Made by a program: the position numbers and the translations under genes. DNA of 63,054 nucleotides, the filler included. It is 5 parts of 5 records of this genome, joined end to end, with 100 filler letters (N's around TTAATTAATTAA, not from the genome) between each part and the next. Parts side by side here need not be neighbours in the genome. Positions count along the whole stretch, not along the records: positions 29,573 to 38,983 come from SRR20825006_2581; 4 more parts are not named here. One strand, written 5' to 3'. The notes under the pieces were generated by a model. It did no database searches and was not told the DNA's origin. It worked only from the letters and a program-made list of their open reading frames with translations. Shown here piece by piece: positions 12,928 through 57,355 of this stretch. Each line of letters starts with the position of its first letter. Position 1 is the stretch's first letter.

Positions 12928-13027
12928 NNNNNNNNNNNNNNNNNNNNNNNNNNNNNNNNNNNNNNNNNNNNTTAATTAATTAANNNNNNNNNNNNNNNNN
13001 NNNNNNNNNNNNNNNNNNNNNNNNNNN
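12928..13027. other. Artificial contig spacer
   Basis: 44 N + TTAATTAATTAA (stops in all six frames) + 44 N; abrupt GC shift. Confidence 0.98.
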
Positions 13028-29472: not shown

Positions 29473-29572
29473 NNNNNNNNNNNNNNNNNNNNNNNNNNNN
29501 NNNNNNNNNNNNNNNNTTAATTAATTAANNNNNNNNNNNNNNNNNNNNNNNNNNNNNNNNNNNNNNNNNNNN
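29473..29572. other. Artificial contig spacer
   Basis: 44 N + TTAATTAATTAA + 44 N. Confidence 0.98.
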
Positions 29573-29789
29573 CATCTTCACCGACGCCAAGACCCAGGCG
29601 TACTTCGCCACCGAGGGTTTCGTCGCGGTTGATCCAGCTGCCGAACTTGAATTGCAGGGCTTCGGGTTTGGCACTGGCGGTGGTGTTATCCGGCTCGATG
29701 TCGCTGCTGATGAAATCGATACCGGCAAAACCGCCGGCGTTGGCGAAAAGGGGCATTGCCAAAGCAGCGGCAAACAATACTTTTTTCAT
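29573..29789 (-). CDS. Outer-membrane beta-barrel protein (OmpA-like TM domain), truncated
   Basis: Signal peptide MKKVLFAAALAMPLFANA; alternating beta pattern, GGEVRLGLG. Confidence 0.7.
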
Positions 29790-29954: not shown

Positions 29955-31295
29955 TTAGTGGTCGTGATCATGGTCATCGTCGTCATGATCGTGCTCGTCT
30001 TCGTCGCTATGTTCTTCTTCATGGTCGCTATCAAGACCGGCCCAGGCCAATGCTGCGGGCGGGAAGGTCAGGCTGAGTGGGGATTCCAGGCTGCCTTCTT
30101 CAAGATGCACGACAACGATGGCGTTGTTATCGGTATCCGAAAGAAAGACATGCGCAGGCTCGCCGGCCACGGCCATCTGGGTATTGCCCGGGGCGATGGC
30201 ATCTTCCACGTGGGCGTGCTCACTCCAGTCAGCGGTGTCGAAAATACGCAGGTCGCCGGCATCATCCAGCAACACAAGGTGTTCCCCGTGGGGATCCAGG
30301 CGGTGGCTTTCCAGTGTTACGGCGGCGCCTTCTGTCCAGTCCAGTTCCTCGGCGTCACCGTCTTCCGGGTGGATAACCAGGATACGGTCACCGGCATAAC
30401 CCACAAAGTGGCTCAGTTCGTGATGACTGTCGAAACTGCCGATACGCTCGCCGGCCCCCAGGCCAAGAGTGGCGTTGGTGACTTTCTCGGCGGTGAAATC
30501 CTCTCCGTCCTGATGGACGATCAGGATGCCGTCGCTACAGCCGAACACCGAGTAGTCTTCGTTGGAGCCGGCGCCATGAAGGTCCGGGCAAGTCGGCGCG
30601 ATGGTGTCTTCCTTGTGATAGTGATCGCCATGCTGATGGTAGACATCAACGGTTTCCGGGAGGCCGGAAGCGGCAGTGCGGAAGGTGGCCAGCAGTACAT
30701 CGCCGCGGGGCTCGGCCACACCATGGTGGGCACTGGCGAGGGTCTGGCTGGCTACGGTGGAAGCCGTTTCCAGCGATTCATCAGTGAGCAGTTCCACCTT
30801 GGCCATGACGGCGCTGGCGGCATCGCCGTCATAGAACAGGGCGGCCTGTTCTCCGTGGACCCGGAAGTGGGTGGGCGCCGGGCCGGTGAGGGTGCCCGCA
30901 AAGGTGGGGATCACTTCGTCCACATGGTCGTCATGCAGGTAGAGCCCGCCATCGACGATCTGTACCTGGTTGTCGTCTCGTTGCATGGCCAGGACAAAGC
31001 GCTTGCCCGGGCTGGTGTAAAGCGCGCTGGCGTCGTGGTCCAGGGAGAGGGTGCCGGGTAGCAGGGCGCCGGCCTCCAGGTCATACACATACAGCTGGGT
31101 GCCGTCGTCATCGGCGGCAATCACCAGTCGGCCGGGATGATCACTCTCGGCATGGTCGTGTTCATCTTCACTGCTGCCCAGCGAGCTGGTGCCGGTTTCG
31201 TTACAGCCGGCCATGGCGAGGGCGGCAAGCAGGGACAGGGGCAGGGCTGCGTTTTGTTTCAGGTTTTTCATCATGCGTTGCATGGTGTTCTCCAT
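29955..31295 (-). CDS. His-rich metal-binding lipoprotein, AztD-like beta-propeller
   Basis: Lipobox LAMAGC; EDEHDHAESDH, PTHF, AHHGVAEP, CPDLHG motifs; His/Asp tail HEEEHSDEDEHDHDDDDHDHDH. Exact start uncertain. Confidence 0.7.
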   Translation of the reverse strand: MENTMQRMMKNLKQNAALPLSLLAALAMAGCNETGTSSLGSSEDEHDHAESDHPGRLVIAADDDGTQLYVYDLEAGALLPGTLSLDHDASALYTSPGKRFVLAMQRDDNQVQIVDGGLYLHDDHVDEVIPTFAGTLTGPAPTHFRVHGEQAALFYDGDAASAVMAKVELLTDESLETASTVASQTLASAHHGVAEPRGDVLLATFRTAASGLPETVDVYHQHGDHYHKEDTIAPTCPDLHGAGSNEDYSVFGCSDGILIVHQDGEDFTAEKVTNATLGLGAGERIGSFDSHHELSHFVGYAGDRILVIHPEDGDAEELDWTEGAAVTLESHRLDPHGEHLVLLDDAGDLRIFDTADWSEHAHVEDAIAPGNTQMAVAGEPAHVFLSDTDNNAIVVVHLEEGSLESPLSLTFPPAALAWAGLDSDHEEEHSDEDEHDHDDDDHDHDH

Positions 31296-31356: not shown

Positions 31357-33423
31357 TTAAAATTCAATGCGGGTACCCACGGTGACGTTGCGACCTGGCT
31401 CCGGCACGGTGCTGGCAAGGAAGGAAGAGTGGTTGAATACTTCTTCTCCTAACAGGTTGTTGCCGCGCACATAGAAGGTGTAGCGCTGGTCGCCACGGAG
31501 CCGGTAGCTAAGGGTCGCGTTGACCATGTCGTAGGACGGGGTGGTGTCCTCAAAGCCAGCGATCTGGTCCTGTGCAAAGCTGCGGTAGAACTCCAGTTCT
31601 CCGTCGAAGTTGCCCAAGTAGCTATTGAGACGCGTGCCTAGCCGTTTGGCGGGGATGCGGGGCAGGTAGCCGCCATCATCGAAGGTCGCGCGCACCGTAT
31701 CACCAAAGACCGTAATCCCTACCGGGTCGATGCCGTAGTAGCTTAGCGAGGCTTCGGCACCGGTGAAGGTGGCGTCACGCTGGCTGTACTTGATCAGACG
31801 AAAGTCTTCGATCTGGTCGAGGGTACGGGCATAGATGTAGTTGTTGATGCGGTTTTCGAAGATGCCCAGATCAAACAGCCAGTCGCCCTGGGTCTTGCGC
31901 AGGTTCAGGTTGGCGTTGAGGCTGACTTCGTCATCCAGATCGCTCTGCCCGCCACCGCAGTCGCTGAGCAGGCCGCACTCGTAAGTGTTGGTCGCCAGAT
32001 GAACGCCTTCTGCATAGAGCTCCTGGGCGCTGGGTGCGCGGCCAGAATGACCCACAGACAACACCAACTCATAACCTGGCACAAAGGCCCAGTTGGCCGC
32101 GCCGGAGAAAGAGGCATTGTCCGCGGTGACTTTGGCAAGAGCCTGGCCATTGCGGTCGTCCGGTGTTTGCGTCAGGTGCTCCTGGCGCGCCCCAAGCTCA
32201 AAGGACCATTGCTCATTGAGGATGTATTCCTCTACCGCAAAGACGGCAATGGATTCGGTCTCGGTCTTCGGCACGAAGGCTTCGCCACCCAGTGAGCTGA
32301 AGTCGAATTGGGTGTACTGCAGGCCCACAACGCCGCGCCAGTTACCCAGCGGTTTGTGTTCCACTTCCAGTCGCGCATCGCCGCCCCTGTTGGTGAAGGT
32401 GCTGCCGATGGCGCCTTCCTCAATTTCGTGGTGGCGATAATCGGTGTGATTGCCACGGAAGCGAATGGCGGTCACCCCGGCGAAGGGCTCGCGGTATTCA
32501 CCACGGGCATCCACCCGGCGGCTGGCCAGGTCCACATAGGGGACAACATCGCCATGGTCATGGGTATGTGAAGAGGTGGGGCAGCTCAGGCTGGTGCCGC
32601 TGGCCTCGCACTCCTCGAATTCGTGGCTGTGGCCGGGCAGGCCGTAGTTGTCGCGGCGATAGCTGTAGGCCATGCCGAAGTAGCCCTGATCCCCGATCCA
32701 GGAGGCGCCAATGCTGCCATTGTCGCTTTCCGCATAGGTGCCGGGCACGGTGAGTTCTTCGAAGCCATTCACTTCGTAGTCGTCTGCGTCGCGGCGACTG
32801 CCTTCCACCCGAAACACCAGGTTGTCGGTGGCAGAGACGGTGAGGCCGGCGGCAGTGGCGTTCTCATCGGCCACGGTATTGGCCCGGGCTGCCACGAAAC
32901 CCTCCACGTCTTCGCGAGGGCGCTGGGTGGGGATGCGGCTGTCCAGCACATTCACAACACCACCGCTGGCACCGCTGCCATAGAGCAGGGTGGACGGGCC
33001 GCGCAGCACTTCTATCTGGCGCGCCAGCAGGGGGTCCACCGTGACCGCGTGATCAGGGGAGATACTGGAGGCATCCAGTACCTGGGAGCCATCATTGAGC
33101 ACCCCCACTCGTGGGCCGCCCTGACCGCGAATGACGGGCCGGCTGGCGCCGCCGCCAAAGGTGTCACTGTGGACACCGGGCTGGTCTTTCAGGGTTTCCC
33201 CGAGGGTGTTCTGGCCTTTCTGGGTGAGGGTTTGCTGGTCCATCACCGAATAGGGTGTGCTGGGGCTGTCACTGCCCAGCGGCAGGGCGGACACGTCCAC
33301 TTGCTTCAGCTCGTGGGCCTGGTCGGCGGCTGCGCTGTTGTTTTCAGCATCGGCCAATACTGCCGTGGGCACCAGCAGGGCCACGGCGACGCACCCGGTC
33401 AGGGTCTGGCGTCGAAATATCAT
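31357..33423 (-). CDS. TonB-dependent receptor, ZnuD-like (zinc/metal uptake)
   Basis: GASRPVIRG, SPDHAV, IEVLRGPSTLLYG; His/Cys loop GLPGHSHEFEEC...C...HTHDH; DYRHHEIE; terminal F. Confidence 0.85.
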   Translation of the reverse strand: MIFRRQTLTGCVAVALLVPTAVLADAENNSAAADQAHELKQVDVSALPLGSDSPSTPYSVMDQQTLTQKGQNTLGETLKDQPGVHSDTFGGGASRPVIRGQGGPRVGVLNDGSQVLDASSISPDHAVTVDPLLARQIEVLRGPSTLLYGSGASGGVVNVLDSRIPTQRPREDVEGFVAARANTVADENATAAGLTVSATDNLVFRVEGSRRDADDYEVNGFEELTVPGTYAESDNGSIGASWIGDQGYFGMAYSYRRDNYGLPGHSHEFEECEASGTSLSCPTSSHTHDHGDVVPYVDLASRRVDARGEYREPFAGVTAIRFRGNHTDYRHHEIEEGAIGSTFTNRGGDARLEVEHKPLGNWRGVVGLQYTQFDFSSLGGEAFVPKTETESIAVFAVEEYILNEQWSFELGARQEHLTQTPDDRNGQALAKVTADNASFSGAANWAFVPGYELVLSVGHSGRAPSAQELYAEGVHLATNTYECGLLSDCGGGQSDLDDEVSLNANLNLRKTQGDWLFDLGIFENRINNYIYARTLDQIEDFRLIKYSQRDATFTGAEASLSYYGIDPVGITVFGDTVRATFDDGGYLPRIPAKRLGTRLNSYLGNFDGELEFYRSFAQDQIAGFEDTTPSYDMVNATLSYRLRGDQRYTFYVRGNNLLGEEVFNHSSFLASTVPEPGRNVTVGTRIEF

Positions 33424-33621
33424 AACTACCTCTGTCTCTAGCGTTCATGCAGGGCATGAATGAGGGCGCGAGTAAAAGGGCGCAGCCGAAAAGAAAGCAG
33501 CTGGCCGGACTCGTGCCGGAAACACGTTTGTTGCTGATCGCAGGCAGGCGCAGCAGGCCCGGCTCTCATTGAGAGGGGCAAAAGGCGATGCGCCAGTATG
33601 ATCAGGGATCAGTAACGGGAA

Positions 33622-33942
33622 TCAGGCAGAGACAGGAGGGCCGCGGGGTGGATAGGGGTTGCGTTCGCTGCGGTGAACCACGGTGGTGGTGAGAGGCAGC
33701 GGGGTGGGTTCCACCCGTTGAGTAACGGGGGTGTTGTAAACGCTGGGCAAGGCCAGCAGGCCGTGCCCATGGGTACATACCTGGCAATCAGCGGAAGCCA
33801 GCAGCTCCTTGGTGGGGCTGTGTTGGCCGGCGTCGATGTGGGCTGGGGCGTGCCATGCCAGCAGCAGCTGGGCACAGAACAGCCCGAGCACCAGAGACAG
33901 GGAAAGGCCGCGACGGTATTGGCTCAGCATGGCGGGGATCAT
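33622..33942 (-). CDS. DUF2946-like leader protein with CxxC and C-terminal RGPP arrest motif
   Basis: Hydrophobic N-terminus with WHAPAH, DCQVCTHGH, Pro/Thr linker, ...YPPRGPPVSA stop; directly upstream of the TonB receptor. Confidence 0.75.
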   Translation of the reverse strand: MIPAMLSQYRRGLSLSLVLGLFCAQLLLAWHAPAHIDAGQHSPTKELLASADCQVCTHGHGLLALPSVYNTPVTQRVEPTPLPLTTTVVHRSERNPYPPRGPPVSA

Positions 33943-34220
33943 TGTGACGTACCCCCGTTATTGTCACCGCATGGCGATGTGCATTGGTGCGCTTCCGGGT
34001 CAGGCTCGGTGCCGGGCACGTAGTCAAAACCACCCGGGTGCCAGGGATGGCACTTGCACAGTCGCTTCGCTGCCAGTGCGCTGCCGCGCAGGCTGCCATG
34101 GGCCACTACCGCCTGCCGGGCATATTCCGAGCAGGTGGGGTAGAAGCGGCATTGATTGCCTATCCAGGGGCTTAGCGCCTTCTGGTATAGCCAGATGGCG
34201 CCAAGCAGAAGCGATTTCAC
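33939..34220 (-). CDS. yidD: Membrane protein insertion efficiency factor YidD-like protein
   Basis: YQKALSP, CRFYPTCSEY, RLCKCHPWHPGGFDYVP; GTG start at 34220. Confidence 0.85.
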   Translation of the reverse strand: MKSLLLGAIWLYQKALSPWIGNQCRFYPTCSEYARQAVVAHGSLRGSALAAKRLCKCHPWHPGGFDYVPGTEPDPEAHQCTSPCGDNNGGTSQ

Positions 34221-34396
34221 GAGCGAATTTCTGCCTGTCGTTAAATGTTGTGAGTTGTAAAAAATCCATGATATAGCCATCGCGTGGGGAGATACCAGCG
34301 CTGTTCCATGGTCGTAATACGCACAGTGATAAAAAAACGTTGTGATTTCATGACACTGCAACGGCAATGGAAGCAGCAAGGTAGCAAGGAGAGACC

Positions 34397-35101
34397 ATGA
34401 AAAAAGCCACAGGATGGACCCGCCCGGTACGGGTATCAGCACTGGCCGTTACCCTGATGTTGTCTGCCGGTTCCATGGCAGCAGATTGGGAAACCGTGAA
34501 CGAAGGCAGCGCCCGCACGGATATCAGCACCTATGAAAAAGCCATGGAGGACAGCCCGGTAAAAGCTTTTCGGGGTGTCACCGAAGTGCAGGCGCCGGTA
34601 TTGAGCGTGTTGGCGGTAATGGCCGATGCCAGTGCGTGCTCCGAATGGTTGTATCAGTGCCAGTCGCTGGAGCTGCGTGATAACGATCAGGCCTACATTC
34701 GTTTCAAAGGCATCTGGCCGGCCAAGGACCGCGATGCCCTGATCAAGACCCGGACCACCCAGAATGAGGAAACCGGTGCCATTACCCTGGCCTCCCACGC
34801 GGTGGACGGTGAGCCGGAGCAGGAGGGTTATGTGCGCGTTGCCGCGCTGGAAGACCAGTTCATCCTGACGCCGCTGGACAATGGCTGGACCCGCATCGAG
34901 TTTGAAACTTTTATCGACCCGGGCGGCAATGTGTCATCGGTGGCGAACGTGATTTCCCACAAGGCGCCCCAGGAAACCCTGCAGGGATTGCGTGAGATGG
35001 CCAGCAGTGAAACCTATCAGAATGCCAAGCTGGATAGCGCCCTGAAACGCTACCCGGAATTGAAAGGCATGGACTTGCCGCAGAGCCATACACCGGAATG
35101 A
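34397..35101 (+). CDS. START-domain lipid-binding protein (secreted)
   Basis: Signal peptide; SPVKAFRG, WPAKDRD, GYVRV, DPGGNV. Confidence 0.8.
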   Translation: MKKATGWTRPVRVSALAVTLMLSAGSMAADWETVNEGSARTDISTYEKAMEDSPVKAFRGVTEVQAPVLSVLAVMADASACSEWLYQCQSLELRDNDQAYIRFKGIWPAKDRDALIKTRTTQNEETGAITLASHAVDGEPEQEGYVRVAALEDQFILTPLDNGWTRIEFETFIDPGGNVSSVANVISHKAPQETLQGLREMASSETYQNAKLDSALKRYPELKGMDLPQSHTPE

Positions 35102-35243: not shown

Positions 35244-35939
35244 GTGAGGAGAAAACTTTTGCGAGCACTGTTTGTGGCACTGTTGCTGGCCCCCCTTATG
35301 CTGGCGAACCCGGTCTGGGCGGCGAATTGGAAAACCAATCATGAAGGCAAGGACAAGGGGGATATCACCACCTATGTGCGCGATGTCTCCAATAGCCCGG
35401 TCAAAGCCTTCAAGGGCATTGTCGAGGTGAAGGCGTCAGCCACCTCGGTACTGGCGGTGATCACCGCCGTGGACACCTTCCCCGAATGGATTTTCCAGAG
35501 TCAGGGCGCCAAGCGGTTATCCGTGGAAGACCGTGAAGAAATTCACATGCGCTTTAATGGTATCTGGCCGGTGTCTGACCGGGACGTGGTGCTGGCCAAT
35601 ACCCTGAGCCAGAACGAAGACACCGGTTCCATTACATTACACAGCGTGAACGCCGATGGCGTGTTGGAAAAGCAGGATGGTTTCGTGCGCATCCCCGCGC
35701 TGGATAACCAGTTTGTTATTACACCCATGGAAGATGGCTGGGTGCGGGTGCAGTTTGAAACCTTCGTGGACCCGGGCGGCAGCGTGCCGGTGTGGCTGGC
35801 CAATCTGGTGGCGACCAAGGCACCGCTGGAAACCTTGCAGGGGTTGAAAGTTCAGCTGGAAAAGCCGCGTTTCGCCAATGCTACACGGAAAGATTTGCCG
35901 CCACTGCCGGGGATGGACACACTGTCTCTTGAGGACTGA
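35244..35939 (+). CDS. START-domain lipid-binding protein (secreted), paralog
   Basis: Signal peptide; SPVKAFKG, WPVSDRD, GFVRI, DPGGSVPVWLAN. Confidence 0.82.
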   Translation: MRRKLLRALFVALLLAPLMLANPVWAANWKTNHEGKDKGDITTYVRDVSNSPVKAFKGIVEVKASATSVLAVITAVDTFPEWIFQSQGAKRLSVEDREEIHMRFNGIWPVSDRDVVLANTLSQNEDTGSITLHSVNADGVLEKQDGFVRIPALDNQFVITPMEDGWVRVQFETFVDPGGSVPVWLANLVATKAPLETLQGLKVQLEKPRFANATRKDLPPLPGMDTLSLED

Positions 35940-38983: not shown

Positions 38984-39083
38984 NNNNNNNNNNNNNNNNN
39001 NNNNNNNNNNNNNNNNNNNNNNNNNNNTTAATTAATTAANNNNNNNNNNNNNNNNNNNNNNNNNNNNNNNNNNNNNNNNNNNN
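38984..39083. other. Artificial contig spacer
   Basis: 44 N + TTAATTAATTAA + 44 N. Confidence 0.98.
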
Positions 39084-57255: not shown

Positions 57256-57355
57256 NNNNNNNNNNNNNNNNNNNNNNNNNNNNNNNNNNNNNNNNNNNNT
57301 TAATTAATTAANNNNNNNNNNNNNNNNNNNNNNNNNNNNNNNNNNNNNNNNNNNN
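57256..57355. other. Artificial contig spacer
   Basis: 44 N + TTAATTAATTAA + 44 N. Confidence 0.98.

Follow-up and report, generated by a model that had tools for sequence, protein, structure and literature searches.

Can the synthesis of a zinc-type uptake receptor be set by a peptide that is still on the ribosome? Almost the whole control of zinc uptake is ascribed to the repressor Zur, and to our knowledge copper is the only metal shown to control genes through a nascent peptide, in CruR and CutF. The question is raised by a locus of marine Alcanivorax type in the window, the whole stretch of 63,054 nucleotides (nt) analyzed here, in which an open reading frame (ORF) of 106 amino acids (aa), hereafter the leader, lies between the housekeeping gene yidD and the gene of a ZnuD-type TonB-dependent receptor (Table 1). 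This small gene, ending in RGPP and placed before a zinc-type receptor, is most likely a metal-sensing switch. We assign a probability of roughly 0.55 to the reading that it belongs to the CruR/CutF (DUF2946) class of regulatory leaders, gating the receptor and the AztD-like gene behind it through an arrest at RGPP that is released by metal, most likely zinc. An earlier note on this DNA had proposed a metal-sensing arrest leader in control of a zinc-type uptake operon, and as a whole its reading is partly supported.

In the mechanism we propose, the leader would be cotranscribed behind yidD, and as this is the only yidD of the genome, it would ride on the transcript of a housekeeping gene. The ribosome would arrest at RGPP, three codons before the stop, and would there cover codons G101-A106, which would otherwise be paired with the Shine-Dalgarno (SD) region of the receptor, so that the receptor is made; the same ribosome would keep a C-rich tract from Rho. 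Meanwhile, a cluster of His31, His35, and Cys53, joined in the window lineage by Cys56 and His58, would be held 46-47 residues from the arrest site, which would put it immediately beyond the ribosomal tunnel, or beyond tunnel and translocon together. We propose that this length corresponds to the ribosomal tunnel and the translocon channel combined. Plentiful metal would bind the nascent chain, and folding or pull would release the arrest; termination of translation would follow, the anti-SD helix would close and/or Rho would terminate transcription in the spacer, and receptor synthesis would stop. The proposal commits only to the polarity, in which arrest is the on state and release the off state. 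A bolder version, in which the locus is a zinc-sensing nascent-chain switch, the first of its sort, whose His2-Cys cluster would bind periplasmic or labile zinc during synthesis of the chain and which would, through the RGPP arrest, replace Zur at the operon while riding on a constitutive yidD promoter, is tentative, and we place it clearly under even odds.

Anatomy and conservation of the leader

From its N terminus, the leader comprises basic residues, a hydrophobic stretch, W30-H-A-P-A-H35, C53-Q-V-C-T-H-G-H60, a Pro/Thr-rich linker, and R100-G-P-P103, followed by V-S-A and the stop. The hydrophobic N terminus, HAPAH, CQVCTHGH, the Pro/Thr linker, and RGPP three residues before the stop had been listed in the earlier note and lie where it placed them, on the minus strand, which it did not state. 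AlphaFold2 predicts a single helix, residues 5-30 (predicted local distance difference test score, pLDDT, of 90-94 for the blocks covering residues 11-30), and coil for the remainder. By analogy with CruR, a ribosome arrested as predicted would hold the codon of P102 in its P site and that of P103 in its A site. The search against DUF2946 that the earlier note had suggested was run: the Pfam model (PF11162) matches residues 6-103 at 24.8 bits against a cutoff of 23.7, and the NCBIfam models give no match for the leader.

Close homologues keep both motifs. A word-based search of 5.8 billion proteins returned 14 homologues, all with CxxC and 12 of them ending in RGPP plus three residues; of the two exceptions, one has a longer tail and one an altered end. 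A genome scan gave 14 loci, all from Alcanivorax or Alcanivoracaceae (Alcanivorax jadensis T9, A. nanhaiticus, and A. sp. DG881 among the carriers), of which one is cut by a contig end and one is masked, leaving 12 readable at the leader C terminus. RGPP, three further residues, and the stop are present in 11 of these 12. In one lineage, represented by L007, from an Alcanivorax metagenome-assembled genome, and by protein P0003, the stop three codons past RGPP is lost and 11 residues follow RGPP; the predicted pairing of leader tail and SD is weakest in this same lineage.

Beyond these relatives, a profile search of 1.84 billion cluster representatives yielded 37 matches at E values up to 0.001, which were pooled with the first homologues into a subfamily set of 43 proteins of 85-140 aa. 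R[AG]PP followed by 2-4 aa forms the end of 40 of the 43 (19 RGPP, 21 RAPP), with exactly 3 aa in 36, and WHxPxH is present in 39. The conservation that the earlier note had expected thus holds for RGPP in the readable loci and for CxxC among the close homologues, and it fails for CxxC across the subfamily, where the motif is kept in 27 proteins and the second Cys is lost in 16. Invariant in a 35-sequence alignment are Q25, A29, H31, P33, H35, C53, R100, P102, and P103. As conservation of the second Cys does not extend across the subfamily, two His and one Cys are left as invariant candidate ligands. In all 40 motif-ending proteins, the Arg comes 45-48 residues after the first Cys, and the sequence of the linker between them is unconserved. 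A linker of fixed length and free sequence fits a nascent-chain ruler rather than a folded domain, and the AlphaFold2 model, with its helix at residues 5-30 only, agrees. Judged by its sequence, the leader is a member of a small divergent subfamily, WHxPSH...DC...R(A/G)PP, that is barely seen by Pfam.

The canonical DUF2946 leaders, examined in a 401-genome phylum sample, carry CGYC-type motifs and often Met/His-rich tracts. Met-rich tracts, common in the canonical copper-type leaders, are absent from the leader of the window. Between CxxC and RAPP we found 43-47 residues in the 26 canonical leaders with both motifs (a tally in which L041 gave 22, from a second CxxC, and which includes the unpublished genome G714), and in the window leader 43 residues separate CxxC from RGPP. 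One canonical locus, L065, likewise carries RGPP. Of the 30 best canonical loci, four are followed by a copper-type receptor and two by a siderophore-type receptor (partial sequences), and none by a ZnuD-like receptor.

Genes behind the leader and the identity of the metal

The two genes that follow are those the earlier note had named, a ZnuD-like receptor and a His-rich lipoprotein. The receptor scores 647 bits against the full-length NCBIfam ZnuD model (NF038289) and 42 bits against the copper-receptor model, and it aligns with the ZnuD structure PDB 4RDR at an E value of 1.7e-114. Papers are cited here by accession or DOI from excerpts, and what is attributed to them is limited to these. 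The zinc ligands of ZnuD are Asp-99, His-100, Glu-340, as well as His-499 (PMC4557270). Receptor residues D124, H125, E333, and H475 align with residues 113, 114, 354, and 513 of the 4RDR chain, a constant offset of 14 fitting all four. The lipoprotein is a distant AztD homologue, aligning over residues 59-442 with AztD (PDB 6CMK; E value, 1.8e-11). Zinc site 1 of AztD consists of three His, and site 2 of His, His, Asp, and a C-terminal His (PMC6689063). In the alignment, His residues occur at ...pgHf..., ...HHgva..., and ...glHg..., and H-x-x-H-x-D stands at the place of site 2, positions that are read from the alignment. We infer that the metal is most likely zinc, because every gene that would be regulated is of zinc type; the grounds are the ligand positions, a second leader before AztC- and AztB-like genes, and palindromes of Zur type in sister lineages.

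Leaders of this kind are also seen before other genes. Alcanivorax nanhaiticus (L012) has two leaders, and it is the RGPP one that heads the receptor and the AztD-like gene. The second (L012:2545-5962) has 98 aa, CDAC, and RAPP followed by VAS; it lies directly after yidD and heads genes for a 433-aa His-rich protein, an AztC/ZnuA-like binding protein, and an AztB-like permease. The 433-aa protein ends in Phe, has no Pfam or NCBIfam match, and may be an outer-membrane barrel judging from its sequence. Homologues of it lie behind yidD in 9 of 30 other family genomes, with a leader detectable in between in several. In a 301-genome sample of the class, 10 genomes carry a ZnuD-like receptor and 5 of these 10 have an upstream ORF ending in R[AG]PP, a count that includes L030, from the unpublished genome G341 (4 of 9 without it).

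Zur-type operators

ZnuD is Zur-regulated. The window holds no match to a Zur-like 20-mer at up to 3 mismatches, and of 26 loose matches to a Zur-like 12-mer none falls within 33400-34450, in line with the earlier note, which had seen no convincing Zur box. A canonical Zur box is present in the near-identical genome G042 (L016:2270-2300), between dksA2-cobW(COG0523) and cam-pyrC2-like genes, an arrangement known from the Pseudomonas Zur regulon. As the window lineage has no Zur operator at the locus, the leader may be the main metal control there.

Zur-type palindromes were found in 8 of 44 related loci scanned (L010, L015, and L085-L088, with weaker ones in L091 and L097). In L010 and L015, CATGTTATAACCTA stands directly after the -10-like TATCAT of the yidD promoter, and the genomes of both hold two matches each at that stringency. 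The second match (GATGTCATAACATA, in G044 and G731) was set aside; it is not beside dksA2/cobW and looks like chance, and the palindrome at the yidD promoter of L010 and L015 is thus left without a reference in the same genome. The leaders of the sister lineage L085-L088 carry HCQHC. Among nine non-self ZnuD-like loci of the class sample, an upstream Zur-like 18-mer is present in three at up to 4 mismatches, in five at up to 5, and in six at up to 6.

Spacer, RNA pairing, and read-out

Spacer counts were made on L002, a locus 100% identical to that of the window. Pyrimidines make up 119 of its 198 nt, which agrees with the pyrimidine-rich spacer of about 200 nt described in the earlier note. 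Spacers of 102-199 nt with more C than G are a feature of all 12 measured loci. The C-rich, G-poor tract is a candidate Rho-loading (rut) region that resembles the "C>G bubble" of cruR (PMC9426467).

Complementarity between the end of the leader and the start of the receptor gene offers another possible read-out. The receptor SD core lies within AGAGACAGAGG, and GACAGAGGTA is invariant in 12 loci. Unconstrained ensembles show a paired SD region in each of the 12 loci (probability of being unpaired, 0.00-0.26). Positions 33628-33635 form an 8-nt perfect inverted repeat with 33432-33439, and the minimum free energy (MFE) structure of a 261-nt segment contains the helix of leader tail and SD (z = -3.3; 0 of 200 shuffles fold as well). 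The same pairing occurs in the MFE structure of 11 of the 12 orthologous loci, L008 being the exception and L012 showing it in part. Among windows ranked as partners for the SD, the leader tail is in the top 1-2% in 7 of the 12 loci (L002-L006, L009, with first place in L013 and L015). At no more than about 15 nt from the predicted P site, the anti-SD strand would be covered by a stalled ribosome; when the footprint of this ribosome is masked, the predicted accessibility of the SD rises by 0.13 or more in 7 of the 12 loci, to 0.16-0.57. Four distant ZnuD-like loci with RAPP leaders were checked for an SD complement, which is short in L028 and not obvious in L030. The small hairpin beside the SD helix has changed on both sides of its stem in L012 (CCTGC/GCAGG) with pairing kept, and it could stabilize the closed form or serve as a protein site.

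An Rfam scan of 33300-34500 gave no family at E values up to 1, and a promoter and terminator scan called neither a sigma-70-like nor a terminator-like site in the spacer. Stretches of yidD, leader, spacer, and receptor are covered by contigs from RNA libraries (four runs); a contig of X15 (33783-34350) bridges yidD and the 5' half of the leader, and X14 is without cover over 33435-33883, although such contigs cannot show transcript ends, levels, or cotranscription.

Linkage to yidD

The leader is not the first gene of its group, yidD lying directly upstream, with its stop TGA (33941..33939) overlapping the leader ATG as ATGA. The gene matches Pfam YidD at 98 bits as well as NCBIfam TIGR00278. 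CGTGAAA at its start is kept in 14 loci, and the sequence further upstream diverges and changes frame, which identifies the GTG at 34220 as the real start. YidD is matched just once in each of four Alcanivorax genomes and in 40 of the 41 family genomes. In 40 of 41 Alcanivoracaceae genomes, the single yidD is linked to a metal-uptake leader locus, and in 30 further family genomes it is followed by leader and receptor or by the 433-aa protein.

From its conservation and position, TATCAT is a candidate element of the operon promoter; the promoter scan did not call it, and a good -35 is absent. Two other candidates were rejected. A promoter-like site at 33967..33938 lies across the leader ATG, and transcripts from it would begin within the leader; TCACAAC(G/A)TTT repeats upstream of yidD, considered as an operator, are kept only in the nearest relatives, with one copy deleted in L003-L006.

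Weighing of the alternatives

Several observations weigh against our reading. On the RNA side, the rank of the leader tail as an SD partner drops to about 4% in L010 and to 7-19% in L007, L008, and L012; the best partner of the SD lies elsewhere in 10 of the 12 loci; and masking the footprint raises SD accessibility by at most 0.08 in the other 5 of the 12. The SD-masking model, which rests on predicted folding, is only partly supported, and with the pairing controls being mixed we keep both read-outs, SD masking and Rho, open. Contigs of X16 and X17, both from one study, end at 33519/33520 inside the spacer, a weak hint at a receptor promoter there. The palindrome TGTTATGATATAACA is perfect inside the leader-receptor spacer of L085-L088, some 50 nt after the leader stop and with a plausible -10. 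At the protein level, the DUF2946 score of the leader is only marginal, and two clear relatives of it in L012 have no Pfam match at E values up to 0.01. The receptor lies under the ZnuD cutoff (647 versus 950 bits) and is thus a ZnuD-type homologue of unproven equivalog status, and the lipoprotein scores 78 bits against NCBIfam AztD (NF038015), under its cutoff of 400. As for the metal, CxxC is a classic Cu(I) motif, both characterized relatives are copper-responsive, and a His2Cys ligand set fits copper as well. The effect of Zn on bfrG mRNA is only moderate (PMC9426467).

These last points lead to the thought that the same stalling device senses copper, the receptor being turned off at high copper either to avoid its entry through a zinc-type receptor or because the receptor itself carries copper. 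Copper sensing would suit the CxxC kept in the 14 close orthologues, the copper response of all characterized DUF2946 members, and the ligand set. Yet the receptor keeps all four ZnuD ligands and scores far higher with the ZnuD than with the copper-receptor model, its partners are AztD-, AztC-, and AztB-like, and Zur-type palindromes occur in sister lineages; the leader, moreover, has no Met-rich tract, belongs to a subfamily in which the second Cys is often lost, and differs in its downstream gene from all 30 of the best canonical loci, so that we regard copper as rather unlikely. A receptor promoter in the spacer, with the leader irrelevant or a mere insulator from yidD read-through, is less probable still, and we consider it unlikely. 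The spacer palindrome and possible -10 of L085-L088 mean that the receptor may have its own promoter in that lineage, where control by Zur and by the leader would be in series, Zur working at an internal promoter or as a roadblock. The X16/X17 contig ends and the fact that a housekeeping yidD promoter need not serve a metal operon speak for it as well, and the sister-lineage palindrome keeps partly open the case that the earlier note had set against its own reading. In the window, however, the spacer has neither a sigma-70-like site nor a Zur-like box, contigs cannot define RNA ends, and the leader architecture is strictly kept before these genes even in the lineages with a palindrome in the spacer.

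Two further explanations take the leader out of metal-dependent regulation. It might be a small, stable protein that is exported and binds metal, serving the receptor/AztD system as a chaperone and carrying RGPP incidentally, as its export-like helix, its invariant His and Cys, and fitness data that link DUF2946 to copper homeostasis with regulation unspecified could suggest. Such a protein is hard to reconcile with the lack of a predicted fold past the signal helix, a linker that is free in sequence and fixed in length within about 1.5 residues, and an R[AG]PP that stands 2-4 residues from the stop in nearly the whole subfamily; besides, among four-residue sequences RGPP is reported to be the one most excluded over many bacterial phyla (PMC12992588). 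We therefore find this very unlikely. The remaining idea is an arrest peptide that monitors insertion or secretion (Sec/YidC/YidD) and not metal, as SecM and MifM do. That would explain the place after yidD, which is directly upstream in 14 of 14 loci and overlaps as ATGA in the window lineage, and RAPP-type peptides were first found as monitoring substrates (10.1101/2023.09.02.556018). Against it, the genes behind the leader serve metal uptake and are not localization factors, the invariant residues are metal ligands, and yidD, being upstream, cannot be the regulated gene; we give this idea hardly any weight.

Genomic context of the leader locus

The window joins five contigs by linkers of N44, a 12-nt AT-only sequence, and N44. 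The G+C content of the contigs is 0.55, 0.33, 0.61, 0.58, and 0.35, respectively, and with such strong differences the bin combines two or more organisms; genes on opposite sides of a linker are not neighbours. The leader locus lies on the 9.4-kb contig at 29573..38983 (G+C content, 0.606), with yidD, leader, receptor, and lipoprotein all on the minus strand. A synteny survey, likewise proposed in the earlier note, was carried out as part of the genome scan and found one order in all 14 loci: a divergent START-domain gene, yidD, leader, receptor, and AztD-like gene.

Upstream of yidD and divergent from it, tandem paralogous exported START-domain proteins about 45% identical to each other are encoded at 34397-35101 and 35244-35939 on the plus strand. 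Most of the 14 relatives keep the pair next to the locus. Genome G001 was dropped as a reference, since its shared words are with other contigs, one of which it probably matches, and since its DUF2946 genes are all canonical; when 41 of its relatives were searched by protein, one weak match resulted.

Table 1. Features of the leader locus and contig junctions of the window
Feature	Position	Strand	Remarks
AztD-like lipoprotein	29955..31295	-	446 aa; His/Asp-rich N- and C-terminal tracts
ZnuD-type TonB-dependent receptor	31357..33423	-	688 aa; ATG at 33423
Leader-receptor spacer	33424..33621	-	198 nt
AGAGACAGAGG	33429..33439	-	Holds receptor SD core GAGG (33432..33429), 5 nt before ATG
Hairpin TTCATGC-CCT-GCATGAA	33444..33460	-	Just 5' of SD helix; conserved in most loci
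C-rich, G-poor tract	33560..33760	-	C 39-48%, G 16-21% in 80-nt windows; last third of leader and first 60 nt of spacer
Leader ORF	33622..33942	-	106 aa (102 aa if start is Met5); candidate arrest peptide, DUF2946/CruR-type
Leader stop	33622..33624	-	After RGPP and V-S-A
Anti-SD strand	33626..33642	-	Leader codons G101-A106; complementary to AGAGACAGAGG
RGPP (R100-P103), predicted arrest site	33634..33645	-	From conservation and CruR analogy
C53-Q-V-C56-T-H58-G-H60	33763..33786	-	C53 invariant; C56 only in close orthologues
W30-H31-A-P33-A-H35	33838..33855	-	35-sequence alignment: H31, P33, H35 invariant, W30 at least 90%
Hydrophobic export signal/membrane anchor	33853..33915	-	Residues ~10-30, Arg-Arg before it
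yidD	33939..34220	-	~93 aa from GTG at 34220; membrane protein insertion efficiency factor
TATCAT, -10-like hexamer	34268..34273	-	48 nt upstream of yidD GTG; only conserved block in 14-locus upstream alignment
Linkers	12928-13027, 29473-29572, 38984-39083, 57256-57355		Contig junctions

Relation to known systems and meaning

CruR (Bp2923) of Bordetella pertussis, encoded in cruR-crtA(bfrG)-bp2921, is the closest parallel (PMC9426467, PMC12914433). There, a ribosome arrested at RAPP in the metal-free state keeps Rho from acting, and once copper lifts the arrest, transcription is terminated ahead of the importer gene; CxxC and RAPP are 45 residues apart, a distance that varies by one or two in the family, and more than 95% of the DUF2946 family have an N-terminal export signal or an Nin-Cout anchor (PMC9426467). 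The leader of the window shares with CruR a small exported CxxC peptide in which R(A/G)PP stands at a fixed spacing and three residues from the stop, a C>G tract in a long spacer, a TonB-dependent importer behind it, and the logic to be expected for an importer, in which a stall would be the on state and metal would release it. It differs in having RGPP where CruR has RAPP, in its marginal family score, and in belonging to a subfamily with an invariant WHxPSH...DC core, no Met-rich tract, and a dispensable second Cys. Its genes are a ZnuD-type receptor and an AztD-like partner in place of CrtA and PepSY_TM, yidD precedes it, and its tail is complementary to the SD, a feature that the excerpts of PMC9426467 and PMC12914433 do not describe for CruR.

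The earlier note had credited both CruR and CutF with CxxC plus a RAPP-like motif, which is correct for CruR and not for CutF of Rhodobacter capsulatus, a DUF2946 member with CxxxC and PPP whose stall melts a stem-loop hiding the ribosome-binding site of the next gene (10.1101/2025.02.05.636593). CutF resembles the window leader, as proposed here, in that stalling near the C terminus opens an mRNA structure over a ribosome-binding site and in that sensing is tied to cotranslational export. In CutF the stall is induced by metal and controls a detoxifying oxidase; an importer needs the opposite polarity. The RAPP/RGPP arrest peptides (ApdA, ApdP, ApcA, and SecM variants) offer another likeness, namely a small protein with a localization signal and a C-terminal RGPP upstream of a TonB-dependent receptor gene; RGPP was the most robust arrest motif tested, the toeprint of CruR shows one Pro codon in the P site and the other in the A site, and TonB-dependent receptor genes are a class enriched behind such peptides (PMC12992588). 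The receptor resembles ZnuD of Neisseria meningitidis (PDB 4RDR) over its full length and in the Asp, His, Glu, and His at the four ligand positions, and the lipoprotein resembles AztD of Citrobacter koseri and Paracoccus denitrificans (PDB 6CMK, 6CK1; PMC6689063) in three site-1-like His, HxxHxD, and a His-rich tail as in CkAztD. Both proteins of the window differ from these in lying under the NCBI cutoffs and in having a leader peptide in front and no Zur box.

Pairs of leader and ZnuD-type receptor are listed, without comment, in a published supplementary table. The word zinc does not occur in the main text of PMC12992588, and Alcanivorax has no entry in the supplementary files of that paper that were searched (file 10 left out); "zinc," "ZnuD," "YidD," and "Alcanivorax" are absent from three supplements of PMC9426467. 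Literature searches found nothing that joins ZnuD with an upstream ORF, or an arrest peptide with Zur, zinc, or TonB-dependent, and the combination of RAPP and ZnuD gave only author names among the matches listed.

The device is thus of the known CruR/CutF kind, and what is new is its zinc-type module, the divergent subfamily with its dispensable second Cys, the linkage to yidD, and the absence of Zur control in the lineage. If true, a zinc-linked version would extend metal control by nascent peptides beyond copper. The CxxC, C-x-x-G, and C-x-x-L variants at a fixed "ruler" length form a natural series for metal specificity. Without a Zur operator in the window lineage, the read-out would be unconfounded, which makes this locus, from a culturable and non-pathogenic marine genus, a clean test bed for the specificity of a nascent-chain sensor.

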